A model generated the notes under the pieces. It saw only the letters and a list, made by a program, of their open reading frames with translations. It had not been told where the DNA came from and made no database searches. Shown here in pieces: positions 5,780 through 51,027 of a DNA stretch of 52,208 nucleotides. The stretch's first letter is position 1. The number at the start of each line of letters is the position of its first letter. Both the position numbers and the translations under genes were made by a program. This stretch comes from Piedraia hortae CBS 480.64. Taxonomy: Eukaryota. The DNA is taken from contig MU006032.1 in assembly GCA_010093745.1 (NCBI GenBank), positions 1 through 52,208 on the forward strand, given 5' to 3'.

Positions 5780-6139
5780 TGTAGGTATTTAGCTCTCGTG
5801 GGTGAGAGTGCACAGCGACCCGAAGAGGGCGGAGCGATAGACGGAAACAGGGACAGGAAAGATGTAGATGTGTGTAAGTCAAAATACCAGTTGCAGCATG
5901 GTAGTGTGAATGACTATTTTCAATAAGGGGACGTTCAGAATGAAAATTCTGTTCCGGTGGGCCGGTGACGTCACGTCGTACACTAGCGGGGCGTATTCAC
6001 CATGTCACATATGACATGACCCTGAGGGAAAACCTCTGTGAGGCAAAAACCTAGGGTGCAGCTGGTAGTGTAGGAGGTATCGCTGACTTGCTATGCAAGT
6101 GCCCTGCATACGCGCTAGCGGCGATGCTTGAATCCAACA
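5780..6139 (-). mobile_element. solo LTR family B (360 bp)
   Basis: TG...CA ends, flanks AATAT/AAGAT (4/5), highly similar to 43294-43654; strand inferred from the U-rich ENE-like motif. Confidence 0.88.
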
Positions 6140-6302
6140 AAGATCTCAGTCTCATTTCATTACTTCTCTTTACTATCTGATAGTGTAGTGTGGTGGAGAG
6201 GTGAACATACGTACCGAAACCCAACGCAAAGAACATGTATCCAAGCGCAGCCTTATCCCAGAAAACAGCCTCTACATGGAGTTCTACAAAGTCCTGAGAT
6301 TA

Positions 6303-6971
6303 TGTTGGAGGGCCCTAGATAGAGGTCAAGCATCCCAGGGTTTCTACCTCCTCACGAGGAAGTTTCCTCTTGGACAAGGCAAGGTCCCGTTTATGCTCTG
6401 TGCGTGCTCTGTAGCTGGTCTCGGTGGATGCGGCTAGGCCTGGGGTAGAGTATGGAGATGTTCCGCACCTCACCTCACCTGATAGGCACACGCATTGACA
6501 CCTACGTGCACCTTAGTCAGTGTCGAGTGACCTGACGCCTGTTGGCTGAAGCCTCGTTGCTATGAGCACGTCGCATGCACCGCAGGAGTTCTCTAGGTTT
6601 TCTCCCATGTTTCTCCCATGTGGAGTTTCCCCTATGAATCACGATCACACTTGTATTGTGACGAATGTGCTCCCAATGACATGTCATAAGCATTGTTGCG
6701 GTCCTGGTTCATTGGAGAGGAGAATTCCTGTCACTGCAGCGACGATCGTTCCGGTGAGATGCAGGATCCATCTCCAGTTGCCTTATGTATACTAGAGGCC
6801 CCCACATAACCAATCCACTGGGATTGGAACTGTATTCCACGCTGTTCTCACTCTCACTCTCTGGTTTCCATTTGTGCACATAACGCTACGCACCGAATAG
6901 CACACATATTCGTGTTCAACGCCCACGCATTAGTCTTTCCACTTTACCCACCGGAGGCCTAGCTTCTGCCA
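6303..6971 (+). mobile_element. solo LTR family C carrying a nested LTR
   Basis: Starts TGTTGG, ends CTGCCA, flanks GATTA/GATTG; 6315-6480 similar to 34650-34810 and 50625-50790. Confidence 0.7.
6540..6918 (+). mobile_element. solo LTR family D nested in family C LTR
   Basis: TGTTGG...TTCA, exact 5-bp TSD ACGCC (6535-6539 / 6919-6923); host LTR sequence resumes after it. Confidence 0.72.
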
Positions 6972-7115
6972 GATTGCCTCTGAGCTTTGGTTCATGTGGC
7001 ACAAAGAAGACAGTGGCCAGAAGAGACCTATGTCCGAACTGCACAGAGCACAACTTTTCTCATCGTTACGGCATCTGTTACACCTTTTTACCTACCCGTC
7101 CATTGCGCCCAGTGA

Positions 7116-7892
7116 TTAGAAGAATCTAACAGGATGACCACGCTCTTTAACCTCCTCCTCTGTCATATTCTTGATCATCGGGTCCGACAGAACATCGCTC
7201 GTCTGCAAGATTTCAGTAAATCCAGCAAAGGGCCTGCCCTCGCGATCGGCGATAATCATCGTCGTTTGGTCACTGTCTACTAGTTTCTGACCTCTGTAGA
7301 CGAGCGCAGCCAGATATGGCTGAACAATAGTAGCAATATTGCCGCGACGAGAGGAGCGAACCCAGAACATGTCATAGTTATCGCCAAAATTATACTTGCA
7401 TGATAGGTCCAGCTCCGCCAATGATATTATGCGAGAGATAATATCCCATCGTTGCATTTCATGCAGCGTGCCTTCATCATTAAATTCATCTCGGAAATCC
7501 CACACAAGCTTGACCTTATCCCACCAGTCTTGAGCAATCAGGATGGCGCTGTAAAGTCCAAAGGGATGGCCTTGGCTTTGAATCTTGAGCAGTGTCTCGC
7601 GAATTTCCGGGGTGATTTCAAACTCAGAGCTAGCATCGGAAGAGTCATCTTTGGACCTTGAAGGCGATACCGGCGTGGTATTCTCTGGTTCGGCTCCTAC
7701 AGAGGTGCTAGAGTTGGGAACATTTGTATCGGGGCCGCAGGAACTGGAGGAGCTCGAGGAGCTTGAGGCGCTGTCCTCTTCGATGTCGGGCTCCTCATCG
7801 CGTAGTAGGTTCACGAAGGAAGTATACCTATTATTGGCGCGCAGCTCAATCTGCCTCTGCGACCGGCGGGGAGCTTGCTTGTAGTCAGTCAT
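7116..7892 (-). CDS. hypothetical protein with Ser/acidic N-terminal region
   Basis: 258-aa uninterrupted ORF, protein-like composition, no recognised motif. Confidence 0.55.
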   Translation of the reverse strand: MTDYKQAPRRSQRQIELRANNRYTSFVNLLRDEEPDIEEDSASSSSSSSSSCGPDTNVPNSSTSVGAEPENTTPVSPSRSKDDSSDASSEFEITPEIRETLLKIQSQGHPFGLYSAILIAQDWWDKVKLVWDFRDEFNDEGTLHEMQRWDIISRIISLAELDLSCKYNFGDNYDMFWVRSSRRGNIATIVQPYLAALVYRGQKLVDSDQTTMIIADREGRPFAGFTEILQTSDVLSDPMIKNMTEEEVKERGHPVRFF

Positions 7893-8807
7893 GAAAGGTC
7901 TGCTGAACGATCGTGTTTAGCAATGGCAACGGAAGTGCAATAAGGAGAAGGGAGGTGGAGGGGTATGTAATCTGACGAAAGGGTTCTTTTTGTTACTATA
8001 TCTACAGAGACGTGTTGTTGTTGTTGTCAACAATGCCGCGATGTTTATCCATAGTGCGGAGATGTGGACAGTGTGAATGACCCAATGATTGCCATCGATG
8101 GCGATTAGATGTCCTGGTAATCCACTAGTCAATCACCACACGAATACGAGTGAGTCTTTTCGGGTTGGGGCGGCGGTACGTATACGACTTCATTCCCAAC
8201 ACGCGTGCGTGTTGGTTATATCACGATGTGCCAAGACGGAACGGGCCGCAACGCGCACATATATCTGATTGCAGATGATCCATGGAACGTATCGATCATA
8301 AGCGCAGTCAAAGGCAGCAACTCGTGACCCCACTGAGTTGAATTAGTGAGAAAGAATGAGAAAAAAACCATAACCCATAGTCTTTGGAAATAGCTACAGG
8401 TTTTTGCGCATGTTATCACTTTGTCTATGTCGTCCCGAGAAATGCATACGAGATCTAATCTGGAAGGCTCGATTTTCTTTCAACAGTATTCGTCACTACA
8501 GCGGGCGGGGTAATGGCTCGGAGATATCAACTTCGTTGTTTCTTACAGAGAGAACCTAACTACGCATTCATGTGCCGGGTCATGCAATTTTACTTCTATG
8601 GCCGTATTCTGCATTGGGCACAGTTGTGGCGCTTCGACATGCCAGCGCTGATTATTTTGGATTGGCACTTAAGCTACATGCTGTCCGGTATGGAGTTGAC
8701 TATCGCAGAATTCCTGTACCATCTCCTTTTCCGATAACTCCAGAACTCTTGCAAATAATTTGTATTGCTGACTCTCTCTCAGCATACAATACACAGCCAA
8801 TCTCGCA

Positions 8808-8933
8808 TCAGGCTGTCACCACGTGAAATCTGGAATCAGGGTACCACAGGGTTATGTTTTCAGGCTGTCACAGTCTGAATTCCAGGAGACCTGAGATCAG
8901 GATTCCACAAGGCGTTGTTTTTCAGGCTGTCAC
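8808..8933. repeat. three copies of TCAGGCTGTCAC within ~55-75 bp imperfect units
   Basis: tcaggctgtcac near 8808, 8860 and 8922; copies 2 and 3 are preceded by atcagg.t.ccaca.gg..tttt. Confidence 0.7.
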
Positions 8934-9049
8934 GACAACTACCTGACTCCGAAACTACATAATAAGGGACGTTTCATTAACATGTGCAGAATGAATTAAA
9001 ACTGTCAAAAGCCACGCGGTGGTGGAGAAACCCTGTCATGCTTGGCCTG

Positions 9050-12028
9050 CAAATCAACTATGCAGATTAAGCATATGGACATTGGCCATCCAGCGGCTAG
9101 ACGCGCTCTCTACCTCGTGCGGCCATATATCACCAGGGGCCATCTGCCTTTCGGTTCGATAAGCGATGAGATCCTGCTTTACGCCACACCACTCGCCACG
9201 CAAATGCATGACATTGAGAACGCGGGCCAGATTCTCTATCGGGACGATTTTGTAACCTCGTGTCTTGGCGAGCAAGGTGATCTTGACCGACGCACAAAGG
9301 CCTTCGTTGGCGTTCTGGGGAGCCACAGTCCGGAACTCCTTAACTAGGGCAATCGCCGTCTGTAGTGTCTAAACCTGTCGTAGGAGCGCGTTGACGCGAA
9401 ATGTCGTGCTCCTCTCCCAGCATTGCACGAAAGAATCCATTCAACATAACGTGGACCCCAGACATCTAGAGATTTGGCGGTATTCCGTCCGGCTCCAGCT
9501 CAAGACATACGTGCTGATCAGCCTGTTGTGTGCGGCTTGGGTCGTTGCAGGAAGCTGAGTGTGCAGGCGTTGGATCTTAGGGACATAAATCTCAGGATTT
9601 GGCAGGCCAATCATGGACCTCATCCACTTTTCTTGGCAAAGGTTGAGAAGCTCATCCCTTGCTCGCGTCATGTCTTCGTTGTCCACACACCGCCAGCCCT
9701 CAAGGGCGATGTGATGTTCCGAGAGAAAGACCGAAAACTTGTTCATGTAATCTAAACCAAGGGCGTGGCGGTTAGTCAGGTCTAGATTGCGTCGAGGTGG
9801 CTTGTTCAAACTCTCCAACCGCTCTGTCATTCCTCCCAGAATAGGCCCATGGCGCCAGATCCCTGCGGGTATATGGAACAAAAGGTGAATTTCAGTCTTC
9901 CTCTTGATGGCGTCAAGCCCCCGTATCTCTGGCCAGGTCTCTACCAGATCCTGACTCGCTTCTTCAACAGTATCGCACCATTCCTGCAGGTCGCTGATGC
10001 TGGTGGTGTAGAGCAGCGTGCTGAGCTTTCCCCCAAGGCACCACAAATGAATCAGGTAATCCATGTCCGCAAGCCCACCTTTGGCTGTTAAAAATGCAAT
10101 CAGGGTCAGCGGCCAGTTCTGGAGTAGGTTTCGAAAATCACCGCCTGTGAACGACTTGTTCCAATTGGCGATTTCTCGGATGAGGAGAATGTCGCAAAAC
10201 CGTCCTTTCCGGCTGAATGTGCACGAACTGCAAGCTGCCAAAGGTTTTCCTTGATTACGCGGATATTAAGCGTATCCAGCCACAGGTATATAATCACTCC
10301 CAGAAGGAGGGAATGGAGCATCTCGTAAATAAAATACTGGTGTGTATCGAACCCTTCGAGTCGGTAGAGCTCCGTGAGAGGGTGCTCCATTCCGACGAGG
10401 TCGGCTTCTTCCACCGAGAGTCCCTTGGTATGCCGTAGCAACCCCAGACTGGAAACATCGGTAATGTCTTTCCATTGATTGACTGCTGCCCAGCGCCAGT
10501 AGAAATCATGACAGGACTGTCCTCTTGTCCAACGGATCGAGCAATGCGCCGCCGCGGCAGGATTAACGGCCATGAACCGACAGGCGCATCTAGAGATGAG
10601 CACATGGCGGTCACTGCGCGAGTCGAAGGCCCGCACGCCGCGCTGGGGCCGAACCAGATCCGGCATCAGCCCAACGAGCATACTGGTGACCTTCATCTTG
10701 GCACCAACCGCAACATAGTAGTTGGCAGAGACGTGAAATTGTGCTAGACCAAATCGCACATTAGGTCCAGTTCTCACAATGATTTGTTTGCATTGATAGC
10801 CAAGACTCACCCTGCGTGAAAAGCCAGCCAAATTCATAGTCCACACTTCCAGGGGATTCCACCGTTTTCCTCGCGCCGCACTTACCCCATTCTGCCAGAA
10901 GTTGACATTGAGCTGCACAACACGAGCGTCAATGCTTCGTGTAGAACTTCTTTGCCGGATGTGGGGTCCGCAACAATGGACCAAAGTCCTCATGGAACGG
11001 CATGCCATCTTGCGGACCAAACTCAACATCTTCCTTAGCCCGGGTTTCTATAACTTTGGTCTCTTCGAGGAAAATCACGGTCGTCTCGCTCACCTCCAAC
11101 ATATCGTCCTTGGTAGGAATAGAGAACGTCAGCGTCCTTGGGTGTACCCGTTCACCGGCTCCAACAAGATCAGCGGAATCGCTCGAAGAAGTCATTTCTT
11201 GTTTTTCTATGTCTGCAGGCTAGAGCGGATCTTCAGGTCATAACACAAGGCGTATCTGGTCGAGCTGGGTGGATTCATCCGCAGGACGTCTCCAAGCCAG
11301 ATACTGACTGGCCTCCCTTGGATCCAGATAATCTCCATAGGTCGCTGCATACGTAGCTCCCAACGCCACTTGGTGCCGTGCCACATTTCGTAACAACTTT
11401 TCGAAGCAGGCCCATCAGGCGAGGTTGCCACTTGCTCTACCACATCGGGGTACTGGACGACTTCTGTGATGTTCCTATAGGTTTGCATGCGTACAATGTC
11501 AAGCACACTAATCTGATAAAATGGTGCCCCATCTCTGGTCTCGCGACGAATAACCTGAGGCTTGGGGATGATTTTACGATGCTTCTTCAGTCTTCCCAAT
11601 GAGGGTACTTTGAGTCTGGCTGGAGTCTTCGCAAGCTCCTTTACCAGTTTCAAAAAGGTTTTCACCAGAGTATCACTGATAGGATGACGATGAGAATGTT
11701 ATATTGCAAACAAAAGGGCATCTTGTTTGCAAGCAAAAGGGTTCCATGGGTTGTGAGGCAGTCTCATGTCGATGTTTTCTGGCGAAATAAAACAAGAAGA
11801 CTATGGCATATCTTGGTCGATCGGTACTGAAGTTTCGACGTCTAACATCTCTTTAACTGTCGGAAACTTGCCATCTTCGTCCTCATGAGCTGACTCGCTA
11901 ATATCGCTGGTATCGCGGATGATAGTGTCGTCATCTTCAGAATCCCAGTCACTCTCATCGTAACTGCAATTGTCTTCGTCTTCCGCCTCTTGATATTTCA
12001 TCTCGCCCGTCAGCTTGGTCGTCAACAC
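9050..12028 (-). pseudogene. decayed CACTA/CMC-like DNA transposase (large fungal family)
   Basis: Motif succession across frameshifted ORFs: PWNPF, KVPSL, EMWHGTKW..PM, FWQNGVSAARGKRWN (cf. W.DDVSGN.SK.WN), AVNP, FDTHQ..EMLHSLLLGVIIYLW, EIHLLFHIP..IWRHGP...TERLESLN. Confidence 0.75.
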
Positions 12029-12055
12029 CTATGCAAAACTCGAACAAATCATTGT

Positions 12056-12357
12056 TTTCAGAAGGATGTGGCACCTAACATGAACAGAACTGTACATAGA
12101 AGTCGAAACTCCTCAGGGTTCTTACCTCTACAGAGGAAGTTTTCCCTGAGGCGGGCCATTGTCTCGTTCATGCTTAAGGGCATGGTTTTCTGACGTTGTC
12201 CTGGCGAATGTGGCTAAACTGCGGTAGTGTGGAGAAGGTTTCGAACCTCACCTCAAGTAGGAATATTCTACGTACACCTTTTGGTCAGAGTTGAGTACAC
12301 ATATTTGTCCTTGATCTACGTTCTGCTTTAGTCCTCAGAGGCTCACCCCCTCCGACA
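12056..12357 (+). mobile_element. solo LTR family A (~300 bp), 5' TG eroded
   Basis: Colinear with 46483-46781 and the reverse complement of 28415-28721; ends CCTCCGACA; no clear TSD. Confidence 0.85.
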
Positions 12358-13205
12358 GAACCTTATTTTTGACTTTTACTTCCTCTCGGTTGATTATTTA
12401 CTACCCGATGCGGCAATTCCCCAAGTTCTGATATTGTCCACGATTGTATCTGCAACATTTCCCGGCAGAGTGGACGTCCGAACTTCCTCAGCAAGCTTGG
12501 TGACGCGCATCGCTTGGAGCATTAGGACGCCCCGCTCATCGCGTGCTCTTATACTACGGCCCACTCGCCAAGACCAGAACAATGTTCATAGCACTCCAAC
12601 TGTTAGGAGGCACTCAATCCCGATTATCGCCTTCAAAACATCGGCGCAGTGAGTCTGCAGACATATTAGCTGACTATCGAGTGCAATTTAGGGATATGAG
12701 CAACATCCCTTTGATATTGATGGCATAATCATCACCCAGTTAGCGTAACGAGGTTGTTGTGAATTCTTGGAGATGTGGTAAAGCTGTGATGAGGTTGTGA
12801 TGTGGAAGTGCGGTGGACAATACAAATTTGGTGGAGGTTAGTTTGATTTGACCAATCTCTTCGGAGTCCCGGCGGTTGGCTTTGGTGGGGCTAAGTGCTT
12901 ACTTCAACTCCATAGTCATGTCATTGTTTGAGATTCCTTTCCCCATCCTGAATCGACAATTGACACGACACTTGCATGTCGTCTGTTGGACCGAGCTCCA
13001 CACCGACTACACCCCATCGCGAACCACTTCCCGCGTTCATAACGTTGCGAGTATGATCATAACTCATAAAAGAACTTTTAAAGGGACATAGCCTGGAAAC
13101 TCCTGAGCATTGGCTACGTGCCCGTATCAACGAGGCTTATGCCAAAGCTATATCAGCCTTGACCCGACTCGGTATCACCGACAACGAGACGCTATTGTCC
13201 TTTCC

Positions 13206-13323
13206 AGTTAAAGCAGACGAACTGATAGTGTGAGTACACTAAGACATAAATAATTGCATGGTTATGTATCCTGCATACATGAAAGGAGTTGTTCATGGTC
13301 ATCACCAGACACATCCTTCAACT
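13206..13323. mobile_element. 118-bp element with AGTT...AACT termini (copy 1)
   Basis: Colinear with 44361-44480; imperfect terminal inverted repeat; TSD degraded. Confidence 0.75.
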
Positions 13324-14007
13324 TCTTCTCTGTCCCCGGACAGTTAATGGCTTAATGGTATTCAGGTTCTATCATCATCAATGAAAAGACTTGCGGCATC
13401 GCGTTGGCCAACCTCTTGGATCTTCGTCACCTCCGTAAACAATGACTGCAGATGGTCTTAGCACTTGCCGGCACTCAAGCCACATGCGACCATCCAAATA
13501 TGTCCACATCATCCCCGTGCCGGTCTTGTTTAACTTTGCCTTAGATGACGCTGCTCCGAAGCACGCTGCCCGTTTTGCCTTGACCTAAGCATAGAAACCG
13601 AGATCTTGCAGCCTACTAGGTCGATATCTTGCATGTTGCTCCGCGACGAGCTTTCATAAGGGCTTGAATCTCATTGCAAATACACGAGTTTTGCAGAGGC
13701 TATCCGGGTCTTTCAAAAAGATGTTTTATCTGCAGCTAGCTTGAGCACTTCGACGTCAGCGACAATCAACATCCCTGCCTCAAACACCTGATTCACAAAA
13801 GCACAGATCACGTGCAAAGTATCACCATCCCGAATGAATCTAGCGCCGGAACTCACGCAGTGACCACGTCTCCACCCCTTTAGTGCGATACAACGCCCTC
13901 GTTCCACAACAACGCGACACCACACCTTCCGAAAGCAGCTAGCGCTGTAATCGACGCAATGGCCAACTCGCCCCACCCAAACTCTCTCTCCCTCCCACAA
14001 CAAGAAA

Positions 14008-25031: not shown

Positions 25032-25639
25032 CGATTGTACTGTACACATCAACTAGTCAGGCGTAGATGGATCGAGGAGCCATCCTCAAAGGCTGCTGGC
25101 CACATCAAAAACTGGAGGATTCCATACTATTCATGTGAATGTACATACACCCCCTATCATATTACGACCAAGACGTCCAGCCAAGGAGAAATTCCCAACA
25201 GCCATAAATCTTTGGCGTAACCAGGGCAAGAGATGCCGCCAAGGCCGATTGACAACCTTCCAACTTCCAATGCACCAAATTTCCAGAAGTTAAGGCTATA
25301 ATCACACATCTGACGGCGGCTGTCCGACGAGTCCATCCATTATGAGTCCTTTTCCCCGATGACAGCACTCACACATTTGATCAGAAGACCGGGATGTTGC
25401 TCTATCCATACATTTGCCACCAACGATTACCTCATATCCATCTGCATCTGTCCTGTCCCTGTTGTCAAATTCCGTCTATCGCTTCGTCCTCTTCGGGGTG
25501 CTGCGCACTCCCATCAACAAAAGCCTTATCGCTACTGAGGAGCCAGCTACCTAAGGCTGCTCTTCCAGCCACTGATATCTTATCATCAGGTCATGGCAGA
25601 CTCTCATTGATCTTCTGCAAAACAACGAGAGTTTGATAC

Positions 25640-27110: not shown

Positions 27111-27171
27111 TTAGAGGCTTCTCCCCATCGCCGTGCGCAGCCTCGCTCGGGCCACATCCATCTCTTAGAGA

Positions 27172-27305
27172 GCCTTAGAAGTCGAGGTTTCTCAGGGTTT
27201 TTACCTCTTTAGGAAGAAGTTTCGATGCACGGTCCCTTTTATGCTTTTTGCGTGCTCAATAGCTGGTCTCAGTGAATACGGCTAGGCCTGGGGTAGAGTG
27301 TGGAT
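27172..27305 (+). mobile_element. internal fragment of family C LTR
   Basis: agaagtcgaggtttctcagggtttttacctc...gctggtctc..ggctaggcctggggtagagt matches 6320-6455. Confidence 0.75.
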
Positions 27306-27544
27306 ATATATTCATTCCAAAAACAATGGAGTCGTTGCAAAACAACGGGACATGAAATCCAGCCTTGGCAAAAGCAGGTCAAAGAAGGACCAATGCATTC
27401 AAAAAAATTTACATTATATAGCTCAACTCCACACCCATTCCGTATCGCCGCCCAGCCAATCTCGCCGCCTGTGTCAATCAAAAAACGCCTCTCCTTGGAA
27501 GGCAGCTTAATAAAATCCAAATCAATCACCAGGAATTGTTATCT

Positions 27545-27661
27545 GGCAAGATGGCCGAGTGGTTATGGCGTGTGACTCAAGGAACCTCCTTACTCAGCAG
27601 CTCAAGCTGAGGAGCATTCTCATGGGCTTTGCCCGCGGGGGTTCGAATCCCCCTCTTGTCA
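27545..27661 (+). tRNA. tRNA-Leu(CAA) with ~35-nt intron
   Basis: Acceptor stem GGCAAGA/TCTTGTC, A-box TGGCCGAGTGG, anticodon loop CT-CAA-G, variable arm, B-box GGTTCGAATCC, T-run terminator at 27666. Confidence 0.92.
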
Positions 27662-28414
27662 TCCATTTTTTGTCCTTCTGTCGGGGTGTCAAAAATATGA
27701 TCACCAATCGAGACAAGATGAGACCGCCAAATCAGCCTGCGGGTATAAGATGGTGGACGACGAAGGTTTTGTGAAGGATTTTTACGGTTTGGGTACACGC
27801 CCTTGTTGTTTTAGCGTCGGAAAGTTCCGCCCCTACCTTTTTGCATTACCGCCTCTGACCCCCTCGTTTGGGTGAAATTCAGAGAAGGTGGATAGGGGGA
27901 GGATATCTATGACAATTTGCTGGATAGAGATGATATCTTGGTGATGAGATGGCTGTGGCTAGCGTGATGTGATTGAGGGTTCTCATTAGCCGATGGAGAT
28001 ACCATGTGAGGATGTTGTGAAGGCGACACGTGATTCGATTCCGATCTATCATCGAAGACATGGGTTTGGTGGATTAATGGCACATCGGTGGTGCAGTGCA
28101 AGTGACTTGGTCTTGTGAAGGAACTGAGGTAAATTTTTCTAGCAATGTGAAAGCCGATTATCTGGCGGTGGCAGTTGCGTTGGAGGACCTTATAATTGCA
28201 TATCATCAACGGTGTGGTTTAAGGTACGGAACCAACAGAAAGTGGTGCAAAGGAAAGGTGAAAGAAGAGGATCTATTACCGATCATGCTCGTGATATCTC
28301 TCAGTTTGGAGAATAATAACACCCATTGGTTTTGGGAAGCCTCCAATACATCTGGAGAGCAATCTATAGTTGCTTTTGCGATGAAGAGGGTCAATCTGCG
28401 TGATGTAAAGGAGG

Positions 28415-28721
28415 TGTCGGAGGGCTGAACCTCCGAGGACTAGAGCGGAGTGGATGTCAACGACTAAAGTTTTCACTCAACTTTTACTGAAAAAGGTGAA
28501 AAATGTAATTGTCTCTCTCTATGAGGTGAGGTTCGAAACTTCCCCCACACTACCTCAGTCTAACCGCATTTGCCAGGACAACGTCAGCGAACCATGCCCT
28601 TAAGCATGAACGAGACAATGGCCCGCCTCAGGGAAAACTTCCTCTGTAGAGGTAAAAACCCTGAGAAGTTTCGACTTCTATCTATGGTTCTAATCATGGT
28701 GGGTGCTACATCCTTTTGACA
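28415..28721 (-). mobile_element. solo LTR family A (307 bp)
   Basis: TGTC...GACA, exact TSD GGAGG; reverse complement of the 12056 and 46483 copies. Confidence 0.93.
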
Positions 28722-28970
28722 GGAGGAAGCAAATGTAGACAACGATGCTTAAACCCTGAGAGCCATGTTCGAGGCTTAGGAGATCGACGTTATATATCTC
28801 CGTGACACCATGGCAAAGGATATGGGCAAGATACCCTGCAATATGTCTCACATGTTGTCAGGGTTTGGCAAGAAAAATCGTAAAGCCAAGCTACCCCTGC
28901 CCCTTCTCACCAGCAGCCTTGTAAGAATCTGAAAACTCAATAGTCTTTTCATACGCGCCTTACATAACCC

Positions 28971-34097: not shown

Positions 34098-34599
34098 CCG
34101 GACTAACCAATTATATTGCAACAGGTTTTGGTAGGGCGGTGCGGGGTAGTTTAAGTTTTAAAGTGGCGCTAAGTTAGGGTTTGGGTGGTGTTTTAGTTGC
34201 ACCTCATATAGGACTTAACCTGAACGATAATTGCCTGTATCTTTGCATCGTGATGATGGGAATGGTAGGCACATGTGTGGAATAGTCGGCTTCGGGCGCT
34301 GAGCTTCTCCAACTCAGAACCTGCCATAGAGTTGTGTCTGGCATAGATTCGTCCCCTATGTATGGTATGGTGCCTGGGCACGACCATTTTGCTATACATG
34401 ACCAAATTCTGCAGTTCCAGCAAGAATGAACACGACGTATTGCTAATCTGATAATCACTCCCTGGAGGAATTGGGAGGATCTTGTGACATGTGAAAGCAG
34501 CATGGCAGGTAGAATTCTGTGGAAGAGATGCTCGCATAAGGCGTCTCGGATGGGTATAGTACTCGCTGCCCATCAGCTAAAAGCTTATATTACACTTCT

Positions 34600-35221
34600 T
34601 GTTGGATGGTAAACCCTCTCATATAGTATACAGCCAGGTCGCATCTGCAAGCTTAGAAGTCTATGTTTCTCAGGATTTTTACCTCCATATGAGGAAGTTT
34701 TCCTGGGACGAGGCACGGTGCCGTTCATGCTCTGTGCGTGTTTGGTGGCGAGATCTCGATGAATGCGGCTAAACCTTGGTTAGCGTGAGGTGAAGTTTCC
34801 AACTTTACCTCTCCACATTACCACATCACCTCAACATAGCCACACATACATGTGCCTCACACACCATTGCATAACCCAAACAATCCGAGTCTTACACAGC
34901 AAGTCAGCTATAATCCCTACACTATCGGCTACACCCTAGGTTTTGCCGTCACGGTGTTTTTCCGTCAGGGTCATGTCATATGTGACATGACGAATGCGCC
35001 CTGCTAGTGTACGACGTGATGTCACCGGCCCACCGGTTCAGAATATCTATTCTGACGTCCCCTCGTAGACATATATAGTCATTCACACTGTCACATCGAC
35101 ACTGGTATTGACTCCTACCCATCTGCATCTTTCCTAACCTTGTCGTTGATCTCCGCTTATCACTACGTCCTCCTAGTTCGAGTCGCTGCGCACTCCCATT
35201 TACGAGAGTACTATCGCTACA
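34600..35221 (+). mobile_element. composite of family C LTR (34600-~34870) and family B LTR (~34890-35221)
   Basis: TGTTGGATGGTAAACCCTCTC start as at 50575; second part is the reverse complement of family B, ending CGCTACA. Confidence 0.8.
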
Positions 35222-35824
35222 CTACATCTCACTGCAACTTCTTGGATTGGTCAACAGACAAAGCACGAACAAGATTCTCAGCATTTGCATTTAATGAAGT
35301 TATAATCATGGCAGGAAACTGGATACCACATGAAGTTGACAGCCGTCGTTGGACTGACTAGGTTAGTCGCTGGGTACGCATACTGGGTTTTAGGGGGAAC
35401 AGACTCTACTAGCGTATCACACCACATTATGGCCTTGTCGAAAGCTAAGAGTAATTAGACTGCATGCTGTTGTCAAAGTGGAGTGAGTCCCTTCAATTTT
35501 GGCGTTGTCGAGTGGTGGTTGGGTGGCTTGCCAACCATCTCAGAGCAGATTGTACCTGGGACTCCGCAGAGGATGCGTGGTCACTTTTTCACAAACAGTA
35601 CACAGATATTCTGCTTCTTTCCTCTGTCGAATTTGCCAAGGTATGGTAGAGAAGACCATTCCAGCTCATTTTGTCATCGTTGTTGATGGTTTTTCAAGGC
35701 GTTCTTTATTCTAGACACAAAGCAGCCAGAGTAAGACGTTACCTGCACGCCTCTTCCGAAGTCTCAAGAGGGAAATGTGGTAGTCAGTCCCTTCAACCTC
35801 TAAATCATTAACCTTTCTGAAGGT

Positions 35825-36215
35825 TGACGAAGACAGATAGTATGTATGAGTGAGAACGATGGATGGAAAGTAGAGATGTGTTTTATGAGTGAATACAAGT
35901 ATATCTTCGAGGGAACATCAGAGAATATATTCTGGGCTGGAAGGNNNNNNNNNNNNNNNNNNNNNNNNNNNNNNNNNNNNNNNNNNNNNNNNNNNNNNNN
36001 NNNNNNNNNNNNNNCATACATGCAGTAAGACTGTCAGCATGCAGTCTTACTCCATGACTCACCTCATAACAGTAGCAGGGCGCATTCACCATGTCGCATG
36101 CGACATGACCCTGAGGGAAACCTCTGTGAGGACAAAACCTAGAAGGCAGCTGCTGGTGTAAGAGGTGTCGCGCAGTGGCATCGTACACTGATAGCAACGA
36201 GACTTCATGCCAACA
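35825..36215 (-). mobile_element. family B-related solo LTR spanning an assembly gap
   Basis: TG...CCAACA, exact TSD AAGGT (35820-35824 / 36216-36220); family B core at 36073-36165. Confidence 0.78.
35945..36013. other. assembly gap (N run)
   Basis: Run of n. Confidence 1.
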
Positions 36216-42974: not shown

Positions 42975-43293
42975 ATATAATCTTTTCACACAATCATCTT
43001 TGCGAAATTTTAGCGGTGCGGGGCGAGGATTGGATCCGTTTGTCACGCAAGTCTCATTTGTAGAATAACGATAGACTTTCAGAACTATTATAAGAGAATT
43101 ACACCACAGCGTACTGAGCTCGTTGTGTCTCCAGCCGATTTTGAGGGACAATGCACATTTCGAGGTTCAGTCCTAGGTTCCGCTGGAGCTATGTTCATTT
43201 ACGGGAAATGTTTTGGCAGTCTTCTCTATACTCAGACGTCGTAATGAAGAATGTGAATTATGTCACCCTCGCTTAGCGTAGATGAGTGAGACA

Positions 43294-43654
43294 TGTAGAG
43301 ATTTGGCTCTCGTGGGTGAGAGTGCGCAGCGACCCGAAAAGGACGGAGCGATAGACGGAACCAGGGACAGGACAGATGTAGATGTGTATGAGTTCATATT
43401 AGTGTCGATATGACAGTGTGAATGACCTGCTATGTCTATGAGGGGACGTTCAGAATGAAAATTCTGTACCGGTGGGCCGGTGACGTCACGTCGTACCCTA
43501 GCAGGGTGCATTCGCCATGTCACATATGACATGGCGCTGAGGGCAAACCTCTGTGAGGAAAAAACCTAGGGCGCAGCTGGTAGTGTAGGAGGTATCGCTG
43601 ACTTGCTATGCAAGTGCCCTGCATACGCGCTAGCGGCGATGCTTGAATCCAACA
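43294..43654 (-). mobile_element. solo LTR family B (361 bp)
   Basis: TGTAG...CCAACA, exact TSD AGACA. Confidence 0.93.
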
Positions 43655-44360
43655 AGACATAACCTCAGGCTGGGACCGATCGCTTGTACAGTGTGGAAAG
43701 TGTTACTCCAGGGAGCTCACTTCCAATTCACGTTAGTGTGCAGGATGACCAAAGTAGCGCTTTCTCTGAAAGATGAAAAGTTTCTCCAACAACTCTGCTA
43801 GCGGAGCCAACCACCGCACCTCGAGGCAATGAACACACAAATATCGCGCTGGTCGACGAGCAAACCGCACTCGAAACCGAAGAGGAATTAAAAGGAGAAG
43901 CGGCGAGAAGTCGAGTCACAGTCATCCAACATCCAAGCAGAAGACCAATCCGCAGCTTGCATTTTCACCAGAAGTTGGACTTGGCTTCTTTCATCCTGCT
44001 CGTCCCAAAATCCTTCCTAGAGTTCTTCGGTAATTCAATTATCATACCTGACCCTACGTCTCACCTCAGCTTTGACACAATGTATTCAAACCTTTCTAGC
44101 GTGTCTAATCCAATCAAATCTAGAAAACTCGTTGCGTCTCCTTCAGTAAGACCACTTCCAGCGACATTCTTGTGACCCTAAAACAAATGCTTCAACGTCC
44201 ACTTCAAGTTATCCCACGCCGTCCTTAATCAAGCTTCCGGACAAACTATATTTCAGACCACTTCCAATTATCCGGCCCGGCAAAGCCCTAACGGAACATC
44301 GATATGGATACATTCAAAACCCTAAACTGCTCCACCATCTTTCTGCAACACGATGGGTTG

Positions 44361-44480
44361 AGTTAAAGGGGACGAACTGATAGTGTGAGTACACTGAGAC
44401 GTAAACATATATTGTTTTTTAATATACTGCATACATGAGGGGACATTGTTCATGGTCATCACGTAACACATCCTTCAACT
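44361..44480. mobile_element. 120-bp element with AGTT...AACT termini (copy 2)
   Basis: AGTTAAAGGG...TCCTTCAACT, exact TSD GGTTG. Confidence 0.85.
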
Positions 44481-45005
44481 GGTTGTCATGCTGCGGGTGC
44501 TAACGGGTGTGCAAGTGCAGTATCCAAAATCGAGGTGCAAGAATTTTCGCCGAAGCAGTTCCGCTTTCCCTGGAGTGCGCTTGCTTGAGATCATTCCTTT
44601 AGTTTGGACACACTAGCAAACTTTAACCAAAGTCGTCTCGCCGAGTCCTGGGGAGATAATGTTGTGTGAGAGAGGATGATGCCTAGCTGGGTAATCGCAA
44701 CGAGGGCCGCGATGCCATTGGCGCAGGAATTCAGAATGTTTGCAGGTCAGCTTAACCATCGAGATTTGGGGAATAATTGTTTGATTTCTATGACGCAGTG
44801 AAACTGTTAGACCTAGACAGGAGGCTATCCTGGTTTGGATGTGGATTAGTGGGTTTGCCGTCGAGCTTATTAATGGAGCAAAAATTCAAGCTTAGGAGTA
44901 ATGAAATGGGGTTGCGAAAATCAGTTCAAGTTTTTCGAAAATTAAATGGTATATTCTACGTTTCTCTCATATAATCAGATGCAAGCATTTCTTTTCTTGC
45001 ACTCT

Positions 45006-45229
45006 TGTTACAGGCTAGCTTTTCCGGCTCATTGTTGTTCATTGTTGTTCCATGGTTGTGGTTCACAAGGCGCGCGCGTACCGCGTACGCGCGCGCTTTC
45101 TGCGTAGGAGCTCTTGAGTATATGGCAGGCCCTCTGGCCCTCTATAGCTTCCATGCGAGACAATATCTTGCTCGATCCTGGGTCCGCGCACACCCCCAGT
45201 GCTTCCCTTCACAACACCAGAACTAACGT
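45006..45229. mobile_element. possible degenerate solo LTR
   Basis: Starts TGTTAC, flanks ACTCT/ACTCG, GC hairpin gcgcgcgta-ccgcg-tacgcgcgc, size like the 17457 LTR; 3' CA missing. Confidence 0.3.
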
Positions 45230-46482
45230 ACTCGGAAGCTGAAGAGATTCTGACCACAGGAATCAGGTCATGGACAAAGTCTCTCGCAAAGACCATACCA
45301 ACAAGACATTTGCGGCTTTCTCTCCGAATAATGACATTGCGGACGTGTATATAAACGCAAACCAAATGCATGCAATTCCAATCATATGTCGTCCACTCAA
45401 TAGCTCTCTTCTGGTGCTCCCTTACCTCCTCCACTTTGGTGGCTGCCTTGCGCTTCACTCTTCGCTGCGCAATGAGTTTCGTGCCGGGTGTCGGTGCTAC
45501 ATTCGGCCTGGTTTGCGGAGGTGTTATTGGAGACACTGTTGGTCTCCACACCGTCGGCGGCTGTGCTGCTGCCCTTTGTGCTGCTATCCTCTGTCTTCCT
45601 AACGTTTTGTCCACCACTCTCCGTAGACCTCTTCTTGTGGTGAGACTTTCAGACATTGGACGTTGCCAAAAAAACTCGCTGAGATATTTCAGCCACTGTT
45701 CATCGCAGCTTCCACCGTACTCAAAGAAGTGAGTACCAACCTAAAACAGCAACTTAAAGACCGGGTCAATCAGCTCAATTTCACTGGTACGAAAGCGCTT
45801 ATGGTGATCTATTCGAACATTCTGCGCCAAGCCTTTGGCTTAAATGAAGAATGGCTCAAGTGTTTCAACCAAGTCATCAAACCAATCGCTCTCCTAAATA
45901 CCCCACTCGGCCCTTAAAGATCTCCTGGGAGAGGGAGACGGGATACTAGTGGCCAATGCCCTCAATCCTTTGAGCTCAGTCATCGAATTTCCCATCAGCG
46001 TGGAAATGAAATCGGGCACCCCGGCCACCGTCCAGATGTATCATGAGTCTTTCCGGGACTTCCTTCTAAACCCAACTCTCAAGAGTGAATCGCAGTTCTG
46101 AATTGACAAAACGAAGACACATGGCGTCCTCCTTGCCAGATTCTTGACCGATCACGGGGCAATACGTCTGTGGGACATTGAAAGCGGTTCCGAAGAAGAT
46201 CTCTTGGAGATGGAATCCCACGGTGCCGTTTGTTCAATCATTGAAGGGAGAGATCGTCCTGATCGCCAAATGGAATGGAAGCGTTGGAGGTGGAACGTAA
46301 GAAAGGATATCAGAGAGATTGAAACTAAGTTGCCCTGCTATGCAGAATGCGATTCAGATTCTCCAGATGGCCGATTTGCAGCTTGGGGCGTAGCCAAGGG
46401 AAAATTCTACCTTTGGGATGCTGAAAATGGCTCCGGAAGGCTGTTTGAGGGCCATAATCATCCTGTGAATTGCATTGTGTTC

Positions 46483-46781
46483 TGTTAGAAGGATGTGGTA
46501 CCTACCATGACCAGAACTGTAGGTAGAAGTCGAAACTTCTCAGGGTTTTTACCTCTATAGAGGAAGTTTTCCCTGAGTCGGGTTATTGTCTTGTTCATGC
46601 TTAAGGGCATGGTTCGCTAACGTTGTCCTGGCGAATGGGGTTAGACTGAGGTAGCGTAGGGAAGGTTTCGAACCTCGCCTCGCATAGATATAGACATTCA
46701 ATTTTTCAGTCAAAGTTGAGTGAAAACATTTGTCGTCGATATCCACTTCCCTTTAGTCCTCGGTGATTCACCCCTCCGACA
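46483..46781 (+). mobile_element. solo LTR family A (299 bp) inserted in a WD40 repeat
   Basis: TGTT...GACA, TSD TGTTC/CGTTC. Confidence 0.92.
46539..46577 (+). ncRNA. ENE-like U-rich internal-loop hairpin (clear example of 12 copies)
   Basis: CUCAGGG-UUUUU-A-CCUC-UAUA-GAGG-AAG-UUUU-CCCUGAG. Confidence 0.7.
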
Positions 46782-48497
46782 CGTTCTTATCAGATGGTGA
46801 GACCATTATATCTGGACCGAATGATGTTTGGATGTGGAGCGCGATAACCGGTCATAAAAGAACTTACCAAGCACGCGCAGACGTTTCGAGAATCACAATT
46901 TCACCAGACAGCAATTTCGTTGTCTTTCAGTCTAAAGGAACATATGATATGCCGCCATCGATATCGGTATTTCACTGCGATTTACACCACGTTGACCAAA
47001 TCTTGACAGGCCAACTGTGCAATCAGATTCTTATCACCCAAGACAGCCAGATTGTTTTAATTCCGATGCAATTTTAAAATCTTTACTTACGACATTCGAA
47101 CAAGGTCTAAACCGAGAAAGCAGTCTATAACCTTGCGTACCCTAATGGTGACCACGAGCTTCTCGCCCGACGTGAAGGCAATCTGGGTTGGACGTTTCGA
47201 CGGATTGGTAACACAGCTATACGCAGATATGGTATTCTACAATCAACAAGCTCACGTTGCTATTGCCGCAATGTCGACGGACGGCCAATCGACCGCTTCA
47301 TGGTCAGACGATGGCAAGCTATCTTTTTGGAACATTGAAAGACAGATTGCACACAATGGACGACAGAGATAAGGCTTGTCGTCAGAACATACACGAGGAA
47401 CGAGGAGGTCTTGACTTCACCAGACAGCCATTACGTGGTTGTTGCTGGGCTCTTCGCTGAGTCGGACTATGCGGCCCTCGTGTGGGGTCTTCAAACGAAC
47501 GAATTGATAGAGCTGAAGCATAATGCGGACTATCTTCCTGCTCTCGCCATTTCTCCAAATAGCAAAACCTTTCATTTCGGCTAAGAAAACGGCCAAATAT
47601 GGACCTTCGAATTGAAAAGGTAAATGGTTAAAGACAGTCATGGGGCATACAGCAAGTATCAATGATATTTCTCTCTTACCAAATACACAAGATTTTGCAT
47701 CGGTATCGTGTAATGAAACAATAATGGTTTGGAGCCCTCAAACGGCAAATCCATTGGTACTTATCAGCGTAGACTGGGTGACCGAGGCATGTTTCTCGGG
47801 AATCGGTCGGATGCTATACACATTGGATCTCATGGATGACATATCTGAATGGGATATTGAAAAAGCGTACCGGGTGCGGAAGATTTGCAACGCAAAGCTG
47901 GAAAACGGCGATCTCGGTTCGATATTTCTTGATGGCTACTTCGTGCAAGCATGCTTCCTGCCTATCCTGCCGATGTTGGGGACAGGGAAGTTGATCAGGC
48001 TCAGACACAGGTGGGTTCATCGGCTTCAACCACAGCTGTTTCCAAATTTAAGAATGCGAAATTTGGACTTTGGACTACCAGGGTTTCGGGGAAACGTGGA
48101 TCAGTATCCATAATCTGGAGATATTCAAGGTCCTTAAATTAATGTCCAAGCATGGTGACTTGCGCATGGTAGAACAATGGTGTTGTCTGAATTTGAGAAT
48201 GGTCCCATCGTATTGAAGTTCACTGAAAAAACCAGTTTTTAGTCGAATTTAAACTTGTTCTACTATTCACTTGATCGCGAATTGGGCGGTTCCGACCCAG
48301 AAATGGATAACCCGAGGGCATAATTGATGATCCTCGCGTCAATGCAGCTTGGACGTAATCGCGTGCACAAGAATCTGGGGCATCGCAGGACCCTCTTCCA
48401 GTGGTTAGTGGATGGCTAGTGAGATTTGGAAGATATGGGCGCGGCTATCGACCCCTAATGACGCTGGGAAACAGGTGCGAACTGCATTCAAAACTCA

Positions 48498-50204
48498 TCA
48501 ATCAATCTCAACCTCCAACTCCTCAGCGTATTCTAGAACCACCCACTGACAAAATTTCTCAAATTCACTCCGCCATTCGCTCATCCTCTGTGCCCTAACG
48601 CCTTTCCCGCGTACCCCGCTCGCGAGGTCTTCCTTCCACTCTGCAGGGCTACAGTCCTCATAGTTCGCCCACTTGACGCTATTTTCCGCTAGACTGGCAA
48701 GACCAGCGAGGCCCAGATTCTCCCAGCCTTGTAACGCCTGCCAGAAATCTGGCGATAGAACATCCCCACCTTGGCCCATGATCGCGGGGTCATCGCATGA
48801 TAAGCAGCAAGGCACACCGCGCGCAATCAGAGCGGGGAGGGGATGCTGCAGAATTGAACCTGTGAGACGAAGGACTTCATTTGAGATAGGGCATGATTCC
48901 ACCAGAATCTGCCTCTCTTTGACCATGTTGAGCAGCAGAGGATGCTTGTAGAGGCTAAAGCCGTGGCCAATGCGACGAGTGCCTAGAAGGATTGCGTCAA
49001 ACAGGTTTTCGTCAGTGGGGTCGCCATCTCCGAGGGTCTCGCCGGCGTGGAAGAAGAAGGGTAGATTGACGTCTTCTTCTAGACAGCGCTTCTTGAACCA
49101 GAAGAGTTCGGGGGTCAGTTCCGCCAGTGTACGGCCGGCGTCTTCGTGGCCAACGAAGTCGTAGCCCGATATTAGGTCTGGGAAGAGTTTTTTCATTTCA
49201 ATACATGCTTGCATGTCCGCTACGACAGTGCGTGTGTTGCCGGCGCGTAGAGTGGTCCAGATTAGACGAAGGCCCCAGAACTGTTTGCCTTTGGGGGAAG
49301 TTCTGAATGTATCGACTTCTTCCTGTAGGGCTGTCAACATGTACTCGTGCGTCTGATCTGGCGTGCTTGAGTTGGCCCGAGTAAACGATTGTATGAAAAC
49401 GGCTCGCACATCAGCCCAGCACACGCCATCGTCGACGAACTGCTCCATCATGCGTCTGATAAACTTGCGAAAGATGGGCTCATACATTTGAATGGGCCCA
49501 ACGACGGAGAAGCAGGAAGCAAACTTTTGCCATATTGCATTGGGCCCGGTATGAGACGAAAGACTGTCTTGTTGTGTTATTGAGGCGCGAGATACAAGCC
49601 ATTTGATGAAAGCTTCCTTTCCTCCCGGAAAAGATGCAGCTGCTTCGTGTATCAGCACAGGTGTTTGGGACTTATAATCCTCTATCCAGAGGCTGGTTGC
49701 GCTTTCAGTGGCAGACTTGTCGTGAACGATGCTAATACTAACACTTTGACGCTGTGCGTCTGTGACGAGCGGAGCATCGGATATGAGACAAATGCCCTCC
49801 GTATCGAAGCACTCGGCAATTAGCCACTCTATATCACCCATAGCACCAAGATGACAGTGCAACAAGGCGCCTTTGGGCATTTTCTTGATAATCTTCCACA
49901 GTTTGGATGACTTCATACGGTCTCTAGCGAGGCTGTACATCATGCCTGGATGGGCATCGAATTGCGCACAAACCTCGTCCTCATAAGCACCGCTCCACAG
50001 CGTTTGCTGCTCTTTGAAGCGAATCGCGGCAACAATGGCACAGGCTTCTCTGGCCATTGCAGAGAGACCGTTTCTGAAGCCATCATCGCTGCGTTGGCGC
50101 TTTTCCTGCTCAATGAGCGCATCTCTACCATCCAAATACTTTTGAATCAGGGGTTCTTCTACATTTGGGATCCCTAGTTCCTCTGCCCACTCACTGTCAG
50201 TCAT
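48498..50204 (-). CDS. adenosine deaminase, ADGF/CECR1 (ADA2-like) family; intronless
   Basis: MPKGALLHCH, GYDFVGHED, FFFHAGET, RRIGHG, ESCPISN, SCDDP; likely start MTDSEW. Confidence 0.93.
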   Translation of the reverse strand: MTDSEWAEELGIPNVEEPLIQKYLDGRDALIEQEKRQRSDDGFRNGLSAMAREACAIVAAIRFKEQQTLWSGAYEDEVCAQFDAHPGMMYSLARDRMKSSKLWKIIKKMPKGALLHCHLGAMGDIEWLIAECFDTEGICLISDAPLVTDAQRQSVSISIVHDKSATESATSLWIEDYKSQTPVLIHEAAASFPGGKEAFIKWLVSRASITQQDSLSSHTGPNAIWQKFASCFSVVGPIQMYEPIFRKFIRRMMEQFVDDGVCWADVRAVFIQSFTRANSSTPDQTHEYMLTALQEEVDTFRTSPKGKQFWGLRLIWTTLRAGNTRTVVADMQACIEMKKLFPDLISGYDFVGHEDAGRTLAELTPELFWFKKRCLEEDVNLPFFFHAGETLGDGDPTDENLFDAILLGTRRIGHGFSLYKHPLLLNMVKERQILVESCPISNEVLRLTGSILQHPLPALIARGVPCCLSCDDPAIMGQGGDVLSPDFWQALQGWENLGLAGLASLAENSVKWANYEDCSPAEWKEDLASGVRGKGVRAQRMSEWRSEFEKFCQWVVLEYAEELEVEID

Positions 50205-50574
50205 GACGTTGACAGACCCCTGCATCTGTCTTGGCACACAGCCGACAGACGTCAGTGACTCAGACGACCCCGCGCTAAGCCTAAAGCATTCAAGACCTAG
50301 CATCACCTGTTGCGCTCAAACCACATTGAGCTTGTGGAGGGCAAGCAATAGACGCAATGTCTCGCTCTCGCCGACTGTATAGTCTGGGTGATGCTTTGGC
50401 ATCTGGATGTTATCACTAGTGTGGACATAGGAAACAGCGATGAAAGCAAGACAACAGCACGACTGCCCGCCCGAGCCGACGGGCGGAACTATGTACGAAA
50501 AACAACTAACTTATCAGCGACATCAATGTCGATCATGCGATCGACATGCCTATGCACTGGCAAGGATCGACACT

Positions 50575-51027
50575 TGTGAGACGATAAACCCTCTCATATA
50601 GTACAGCCAGGTCGCATCTGCGAGCTTAGATAGAGGTCGATGCTTTTCAGGGTTTTTACCTCCATAGGAGGGAGTTTTCCCTGGGACGAGGCACGGTGTC
50701 GTTCATGCTCTGTGCGCGCTCAGTGACGTGATCTCGGTGAAAGCGGCTAGACCTGGGTTAGCGAGCGGTGAAGTTCCGCACTTCACCGCTCTACATCACC
50801 TCGTATAGCGAATTTGCGGTGTATTACGCGCATTATTAGTAATCGGCGCTCGGCTCTCGACTTGACGCGTCAACTAGTTTTCCGTAGAGACTTGTATGCA
50901 CACCTACTCACAATTATGAGGCCTCGAATCCTACATACATGCTCATAGTCACACCATATGTGTTTTACATACCATCGCCTGTCCTATCCTACGACAGTGA
51001 TGTGCTCTGAGGTTCACTTCTCCGACA
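50575..51027 (+). mobile_element. solo LTR family C with nested short LTR
   Basis: TGTG...CCGACA, flanks ACACT/ACCCT; matches the 34600 copy outside the insert. Confidence 0.85.
50804..50921 (+). mobile_element. family E short LTR nested in family C LTR
   Basis: Similar to 51931-52054; flanked by CCTCG/CCTCG; termini eroded. Confidence 0.7.

Follow-up and report, generated by a model that had tools for sequence, protein, structure and literature searches.

An element for nuclear expression, or ENE, is an RNA stem-loop whose U-rich internal loop lies beside G-C pairs, and the ENE that KSHV (Kaposi's sarcoma-associated herpesvirus) carries in its polyadenylated nuclear (PAN) RNA engages the poly(A) tail in five U.A-U triples and three A-minor triples (PMC13541005, PMC7583470, PMC12501189). 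According to the portions of these sources that deal with mobile elements, more than 200 ENEs have been predicted, mostly in plant and fungal transposons and with strong ties to long terminal repeat (LTR) retrotransposons (PMC13541005, PMC7583470, PMC12501189), and ENEs embedded in plant and fungal LTRs have already been described (figure legend of PMC13541005; PMC12501189). The ENE of Evade (Arabidopsis Copia93), as presented in the relevant part of PMC12501189, forms a triplex, protects from CCR4a deadenylation and raises mobility; it is located upstream of the 3' LTR, and the G-C pairs directly beside its U-tracts are essential on both sides. Here, we describe a hairpin with two opposed U-runs that recurs in the LTRs of a 52,208-nucleotide stretch of Piedraia hortae CBS 480.64 (contig MU006032.1, positions 1 to 52,208; hereafter the window). 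An original prediction, made without database searches, had counted 12 copies in four LTR families (A to D) and likened them to the PAN ENE, noting that ENE-like elements are reported in plant and fungal transposons, as is indeed stated in PMC13541005 and PMC12501189. All 12 copies are present, on the strands predicted and with coordinates that agree within 1-4 nt.

Copies A2 (28626..28666, minus strand), A3 (46538..46578, plus strand) and C4 (50645..50686, plus strand) share one layout, which consists of a lower stem of 7-8 bp closed by GGG/CCC, a run of five U, a single A, CCUC(C), an apical loop of 3-5 nt, (G)GAGG, a purine triplet (AAG in A2 and A3, GAG in C4), a run of four U and the other side of the lower stem; the upper stem of C4 is CCUCC/GGAGG. 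B1 (6019..6057, minus strand) reads ACCCUAGG-UUUUU-G-CCUC-ACA-GAGG-UUUU-CCCUCAGGGU, that is, CCCUAGG, U5, G, CCUC, ACA, GAGG, U4 and CC(C)U(C)AGGG, with a bulge interrupting the lower stem, and B2 (34933..34971, plus strand) carries the upper stem GCCG/CGGU. The opposed runs are intact in these five copies, as U5/U4 in A2, A3, C4 and B1 and as U4/U5 in B2. They are shorter or interrupted in the other seven. A1 (12111..12151, plus strand) reads CCUCAGGG-UUCUU-A-CCUC-UACA-GAGG-AAG-UUUU-CCCUGAGG, where a C breaks the 5' U-run; C1 (6332..6375, plus strand) has decayed to UUUCU/UUUCC, with G.U pairs in its lower stem; C3 (34668..34708, plus strand) has A-U instead of G-C as its loop-closing pair, both sides having changed; B3 (36108..36145, minus strand) has U4/U3; and B4 (43534..43572, minus strand) has U6/U3+G, with one C.C mismatch in the lower stem. 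C2 (27190..27230, plus strand), which had been called degenerate, is indeed a remnant whose 3' lower stem is deleted and in which one upper-stem pair is broken. The weakest case is D1 (6590..6637, plus strand), a hairpin-like region with a 10-nt internal duplication and ~4 lower-stem pairs.

The minimum-energy folds of 52-nt stretches show the lower stem, the U-rich internal loop and the upper stem in 11/12 copies; when only the cores are folded (n=11, C2 excluded), B3 folds otherwise and B4 keeps a weak form. In the ensemble the U-runs are mostly unpaired, with a mean P(unpaired) of 0.65-1.00 taken over runs of at least 3 U inside the internal loop of the 11 folded copies. Of the 11 copies with a preserved lower stem, 10 close the U-loop on that side with GG/CC or GGG/CCC and one, C3, with A-U; on the upper side of the loop, a G-C pair is near-adjacent in B (G.U, then C-G). 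Each hairpin of A, B and C contains one internal loop, and the extra U-run of D1 is a product of its duplication.

The hairpin is a genuine feature, and its occurrence is not random. In the window, the exact pattern GGTTTTTNCCTC..GAGG..TTTTCC has 4 matches, compared with 0.00 in 100 shuffles, and a structural descriptor has 3 matches in its strict form against 0.10 per shuffled window (maximum 1) and 6 in its relaxed form against 0.14 (maximum 2). All descriptor matches in the window fall within LTR copies and on the U-rich strand, with none elsewhere. Because the copies are related by descent, they represent ~2-3 independent occurrences (A/C, B and perhaps D) rather than 12. From the descriptor shuffles, we estimate that a single 350-nt LTR would contain a motif of this kind by chance with a probability of ~1e-3, so that the hairpin in B, which is independent of A/C, is not a chance occurrence.

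The hairpin is conserved above the background of its LTRs. A1 and A3 each differ from A2 at 2/41 hairpin positions, against a likeness of 81-84% over the whole LTR. The apical loop is free to vary (UACA, UAUA, CAUAU, AUA, ACA, UCA) and the stems and U-runs persist; B2 keeps the hairpin with another upper stem and with swapped run lengths. The claim that the upper stem varies while staying paired applies to three single copies, namely C4 with one extra pair, B2 with GCCG/CGGU and D1 with CUCC/GGAG; CCUC/GAGG is found in 8/12 copies, and the upper stem is broken in C2. As well, the proposed variant CCUCU/AGAGG would leave a loop of 2 nt and is not a separate form.

The repeats were found by self-comparison of the window, and similarity among A, B and C was examined with blastn. 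Self-comparison outlined family A at 12050-12357 (+), 28408-28722 (-) and 46473-46788 (+), family B at 5780-6140 (-), 43294-43655 (-), 34891-35221 (+) and 36055-36171 (-), with B2 77-78% like B1 and B4, and family C at 6316-6479 (+), 27176-27307 (+), 34598-34822 (+) and 50573-50800 (+). Families A and B carry the marks of solo LTRs, which are TG..CA ends, target duplications, dispersed copies and no attached coding region. A2 (28415..28721, minus strand) runs from TGTCAA to CCGACA between exact 5-bp target duplications (CCTCC/CCTCC); the family ends are TGTCAG..CCGACA. The other A LTRs, A1 (~12056-12357) and A3 (46483-46781), are both on the plus strand, the target duplication of A3 matching at 4/5 positions. 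B4 (43294..43654, minus strand) runs from TGTTGG to CTACA between exact duplications (TGTCT/TGTCT). The location of the hairpins in LTRs, as originally proposed, is thus upheld by the ends and by the target duplications at A2 and B4. Of the other B copies, B1 occupies 5780-6139 (minus strand), B2 starts at 34891 (plus strand), B3 (36055-36171, minus strand) is cut by an assembly gap of N at 35945-36014, and a fragment at 25431-25535 lacks the hairpin part. The LTR ends of C and D are only partly defined. Family C starts with TGTTGG or TGTGAG: C4 (50575..50800, plus strand) starts with TGTGAG and its 3' end is uncertain, and the other copies, all on the plus strand, lie at 34600-~34822, at ~6236-6539 and, as a fragment, at 27176-27307. 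The putative LTR D (6540..7012, plus strand), a single copy with an uncertain 3' end, begins with TGTTGG directly after C1. Counted from the same TGT(T/C)(G/A)G end, the start of the hairpin is at 50-96 nt in all families.

No reverse transcriptase, integrase or gag was matched among the 125 window open reading frames (ORFs) scanned, a set made up of 20 that reach 150 aa or more and, picked outside identified genes, 105 from among the 201 that reach 80 aa or more. The window repeats are most likely fossils of LTR retrotransposons, of which only solo LTRs are left.

The LTRs lie in clusters. B1 (-), C1 (+) and D1 (+) stand side by side at 5780-7012, and C3 (+), B2 (+), the assembly gap and B3 (-) follow one another at 34600-36171. 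Moreover, RNA contigs from other loci fuse a B 5' end head-to-head with an A 5' end (joint 43646 to 46483). The clustering and this joint suggest nested or preferred insertion beside earlier LTRs. LTR A3 is flanked by plus-strand ORFs at 46102-46485 and 47061-47369 that have weak WD40-type Pfam matches, and the ORF at 46757-47074 gave no Pfam match.

The four families are not equally distant from each other. A and C are related LTR families that have the whole ~100-nt module described below in common, and more, so that the original statement that they share further segments understates their relationship; B has no blastn similarity to A or C, and the singleton D has no significant similarity to B. 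D as a relative of B was ruled out on the same ground. A covariance model built from A/C recovers C1 (E=4.6e-9) and C2 (E=0.0024), both outside its training set. A2 and B1 are ~78% identical over 36 columns by our own count, and in a MAFFT alignment of all 12 hairpins the B stems fall out of register. Given the E values of the A/C model for the other families, listed below, the link among the four families is a resemblance of architecture with ~78% identity rather than demonstrated homology. The sharing of one element among four families is weaker than originally claimed, D1 being the weakest case.

Directly 3' of the ENE-like hairpin stands a second hairpin, HP2 (46579..46618 on the plus strand in A3), which makes the conserved unit a module of ~100 nt. 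HP2 is kept in all aligned A and C copies; five of its pairs show compensatory changes to both partners, and three G.U pairs never vary. Its covariation score of 0.360, against 0.223, was reached by only 1/500 shuffles, a value to be read with the caveats that the structure was predicted on the same alignment and that A versus C is essentially one split. Family B has a second hairpin in the same place (5999..6018, minus strand, in B1; CAUGUCA..UGACAUG), in which B3 shows an A-U to G-C change. In B, a longer-range pairing of UACACUA..CAGC with GCUAGUGUA (5965-6075, minus strand) encloses both hairpins and is broken in B3.

Compared with the single-domain ENE of KSHV PAN, the hairpin has the same U-rich internal loop, the same G-C pairs of the lower stem beside the loop and a similarly variable upper stem-loop, and as it lacks an encoded A-tract it would be expected to act on a poly(A) tail. 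It differs in its U5/U4 runs, which allow at most four triples where PAN, as described in the sources cited above, has five U.A-U triples, in the A and AAG that stand between the U-runs and the upper stem in A/C, and in the bulged lower stem of B. The host is also different, an LTR retrotransposon here and a viral long noncoding RNA in PAN, and the likeness here comes from sequence and predicted fold. The hairpin has the general ENE shape originally claimed and departs from known ENEs in its short runs, in the A/AAG mismatch of A/C, in the bulged lower stem of B and in being a single domain.

Among the transposon ENEs of Tycowski, Shu and Steitz (2016), as related in parts of PMC13541005, PMC7583470 and PMC12501189, most of the plant ones are double-domain, whereas the present hairpin is single-domain; two stacked U-rich loops split by a short duplex, the feature of a double-domain ENE of the TWIFB1 type, were not found in A, B or C. 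As described there, the lower domain of a double ENE has a bulge of 3-4 nt and an interrupted A-minor stem, and the AAG of A/C and the bulged stem of B recall both. With the Evade ENE, as far as the cited part of PMC12501189 describes it, the hairpin shares its setting in an LTR retrotransposon, U-tracts flanked by G-C and the proposed guard against deadenylation, but it has two U-tracts inside the LTR, whereas the Evade ENE lies before the 3' LTR. Since that ENE, by the same account, is far upstream of the poly(A) site, the distance from hairpin to poly(A) is no objection. A triple helix of the MALAT1/MEN-beta type does not fit, as the required downstream A-rich tract is missing in 11/12 copies over the 400 nt examined. 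A small hairpin, AGAAGUC-GAAACUUCU, stands upstream of the ENE-like one at 46524-46541 and also in A1 and A2. In Rfam it is matched with parts of the type III hammerhead, namely stem III, GUC and GAAAC (E=2.7, 13.3 bits against a gathering threshold of 48.5); the 36-nt core is absent, the hammerhead or retrozyme was rejected, and the match was judged to be due to chance.

Regarding the transcribed strand, departures from Watson-Crick pairing in the A/C and B alignments are mostly G.U on the U-rich strand, and the consensus energy of the A/C module is -26.2 kcal/mol in the sense (U-rich) direction and -16.2 kcal/mol in antisense. The LTR ends are near-symmetric (TGT..ACA) and so do not fix the orientation. 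In the B LTR, the hairpin at 83-122 is followed by TGACGTCA at 168 and a TATA-like stretch at ~215-230, and this order fits a location of the hairpin in U3, the unique 3' region of the LTR. On these pairing and position data, the U-rich strand is most likely sense. An RNA run (X1) contains contigs that skip short GT..AG or CT..AC introns, which identifies it as spliced RNA, and 13-22 of its contigs from other copies cover the B4 hairpin, which indicates that the LTR families are transcribed; X1 consists of contigs that carry neither strand nor ends, and these observations are among the 8/1265 pieces and 6/183 loose ends listed. An RNA contig of the deaminase gene (minus strand, 48405-50631) enters the first ~57 nt of C4 and ends 14 nt before its hairpin, probably because the contig breaks where the sequence is repeated rather than because the transcript ends there. 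Within 400 nt downstream, 11/12 copies have no encoded A-tract (maximum 5-7 A per 10 nt), and C2 has 8/10 A at +246, a position not within its LTR. The poly(A) tail would therefore be required for a triplex to form.

We put the probability at about 45% that the hairpin is an RNA module of U3 and the 3' untranslated region (UTR) that works like a single-domain ENE, and we infer its strand, its U3 placement, poly(A) binding and stabilisation. In this mechanism, the hairpin would be a cis-acting RNA element of LTR retrotransposons, with the U-rich strand as sense and the hairpin in U3, 50-96 nt from the LTR 5' end. Transcripts of a full-length element would include the hairpin of the 3' LTR alone, and there it would lie in the 3' UTR, ~150-250 nt upstream of the poly(A) site. 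The opposed U5/U4 runs would clamp a stretch of poly(A) into up to four U.A-U triples, and the G-C pairs of the lower stem would take A-minor contacts. Deadenylation would be slowed and the level of retrotransposon RNA raised, and the second hairpin directly downstream would belong to the same conserved module. A bolder version, which we consider rather improbable, is that the hairpin and the G.U-rich HP2 form a compact, so far undescribed subclass of single-domain ENE with four triples and with the poly(A) strand capped or held in a pocket by a 1x3 purine mismatch (A/AAG), kept in or passed among at least three otherwise unalignable LTR lineages and stabilising host transcripts that end in solo LTRs. 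The idea that several lineages keep or exchange the module, and that solo LTRs scatter it as a stabilising module beside host genes, is speculation. If the hairpin is in U3, a solo LTR would transcribe it only by read-through from upstream.

Several observations weigh against an ENE-like function. The U-runs are short, and even the best copies allow no more than four consecutive triples. Between the runs and the upper stem, A/C has an A and, opposite it, an AAG, which pairs in the minimum-energy fold with three 5' U in A1-A3 and with two in C1 and C3, and the upper-side G-C directly beside the U-tracts, essential in Evade according to the cited part of PMC12501189, is missing. Covariation, which the original prediction had named beforehand as the check whose failure would count against it, is not significant in the hairpin of either group, its score being reached by 252/500 shuffles in A/C (n=6 sequences) and by 68/500 in B (n=4 sequences), both comparisons being underpowered. 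Seven of the 11 A/C hairpin pairs are invariant. Most of the conservation is that of the sequence itself, as it would also be in a DNA element or a site bound by protein. Consensus folding does recover the hairpin in A/C (98.5% of cells paired) and in B (93.4%), and compensatory changes occur as single cases (C1 pair 24-61, the closing pair of C3, the upper stem of B2). In the covariance-model check, which had also been proposed, the A/C model retrieved C1 and C2, but its scores for B1 (E=0.13) and B4 (E=4.3) are not significant, and B2, B3 and D1 escape it. Rfam 15, searched at the gathering threshold or E<=10 with the whole window and two 141-nt stretches, returned no ENE-type match, which has little weight as the presence of an ENE model in Rfam is unconfirmed. 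With respect to strand, the B module folds slightly better in antisense (-26.2 vs -22.3), and single copies fold about equally on both strands. Finally, A3 has the same orientation as the flanking WD40 ORFs and may be intronic or exon-splitting, and if it is intronic, an LTR with an active sense poly(A) signal would be mildly unexpected there.

These points give room to other explanations. One that we hold to be unlikely is that the hairpin and HP2 are a structured 3'-UTR module that does not bind poly(A), for instance one that is bound by Gag or by a protein of the host, one that signals export or the processing of the 3' end, or a fold on which the U-loop is mere decoration. It would agree with a conserved block of ~100 nt that extends beyond the hairpin, with the best covariation falling in HP2 and not in the U-loop hairpin, with the retention of CCUC/GAGG in more copies (8/12) than an ENE would need, and with U-runs that are short and, in A/C, offset by A/AAG. 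However, two unpaired U-runs that face each other and have a G-C closure are precisely what marks an ENE, and they persist through the stem change of B2, and Rfam yielded no other known element of such shape. The position of the hairpin upstream of the TGACGTCA site and the TATA-like stretch in B could also be read in terms of a DNA-level regulatory element of the LTR promoter region, such as a U3 enhancer or transcription-factor site, whose hairpin potential is incidental; conservation mainly in sequence, the lack of significant covariation and single-copy folds about equally stable on either strand would suit such an element, to which we likewise assign a low probability. Its difficulty is that one strand carries both T-runs, as a mirror and not a palindrome, which a dimeric DNA-binding site would not give. 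Departures of the G.U type favour one RNA strand, and B2 and C3 keep their pairing through two-sided changes, with a varying apical loop and stems that are kept.

Less probable still is the opposite LTR orientation, in which the A-rich form of the hairpin would be transcribed and, lying in the R/U5 part (repeat and unique 5' regions) at ~70-85% of the LTR, would act in the 5' leader in packaging, dimerisation or the control of reverse transcription. The near-symmetric LTR ends permit it, the B module folds slightly better antisense, and a U-rich hairpin of a copia element, described in the next paragraph, sits at 74% of its LTR, which in relative terms is where the A-rich form would be found here. 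Against it stand the strong preference of the A/C module for the U-rich strand (-26.2 vs -16.2, with invariant G.U pairs) and, in B, the succession of TGACGTCA and the TATA-like stretch, which fits the assumed orientation. That the hairpin has no function at all and is a neutral passenger kept through recent shared ancestry of the LTR families appears very improbable: there are few independent lineages (A/C, B, D) and all window copies are decaying solo LTRs, but the hairpin has been preserved much better than the remainder of the LTR, and A/C and B have it in common without other detectable similarity, at a chance of ~1e-3 per 350-nt LTR.

Metagenome contigs were also searched for hairpins of this shape. 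The A/C-specific pattern had 0 matches in metagenome contigs and 0 in viral contigs. A generic pattern found 40 metagenome loci, none related to the window LTRs, of which 12 belong to one AT-rich repeat family (L021, L001, L003, L011, L013, L014, L020, L026, L032, L034, L038 and L039) and the remaining ones are tandem repeats or bacteria-like contigs. ORFs were listed for L021 and L013 and were informative in L021 only, which holds two tandem Ty1/copia elements with gag, integrase and RVT_2. On the coding strand of L021, inside a 598-nt LTR, lies the hairpin CGUGG-UUUUU-A-CCUC-UUU-GAGG-G-UUUU-CCACG, 445 nt from the LTR start (74% of the LTR) and 127 nt before its end, followed by UUAAAAA. At one boundary of this LTR, a purine tract is followed by TGTTAGG; at the opposite boundary come GAACA, two bases and TGGTATCAGAGCC, the last of which we take to be a copia-type primer-binding site. 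A diverged second LTR copy keeps the hairpin. A variant of the hairpin in this family has a lower-stem G-C changed to G.U. The parts of the copia hairpin follow one another as they do in ours, the 5' U-run being followed by A and the 3' U-run preceded by a purine, and it too lies inside an LTR, in its case on the coding strand; they differ in that the copia family is unrelated, AT-rich and plant-like, that its hairpin is far from the LTR 5' end, and that an ENE role there is only predicted. Because the copia hairpin was found by a pattern search, its sequence resemblance exists by construction. Its sense-strand location in an LTR lends independent if weak support, by analogy, to hairpins of this kind being retrotransposon RNA elements.

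The window itself is gene-dense and eukaryotic, and it is fungus-like in its intron-bearing transfer RNA (tRNA) gene, its housekeeping genes and its introns, which the RNA contigs show to be very short (43-49 nt). The housekeeping genes include RPB2, a TLC-domain protein, a DHDPS-family protein, an M16 peptidase and an adenosine/AMP deaminase, as well as ORFs that match WD40. The tRNA gene, with a 38-nt intron, was found by Rfam at 27545-27661 (43.7 bits) and was not called by ARAGORN in bacterial mode; it sits ~240 nt downstream of the LTR fragment C2 (27176-27307). In addition, a further short repeat family at 1-81, 50810-50927 and 51937-52054, 92-95% alike and without the U-rich hairpin, adjoins C4 and both window ends.

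For the LTR lineage described here, the hairpin would be a handy marker for finding and orienting its LTRs. As ENEs in plant and fungal LTR retrotransposons have already been published, to judge from the portions of the literature cited above, the gain of a further case is incremental. If the hairpin is a working ENE, it would be a natural variant of very small size (~40 nt, with U5/U4 runs and the purine mismatch) that bears on the minimum requirements for clamping poly(A), and these fungal LTR families would join the mobile elements that guard their RNA from deadenylation.

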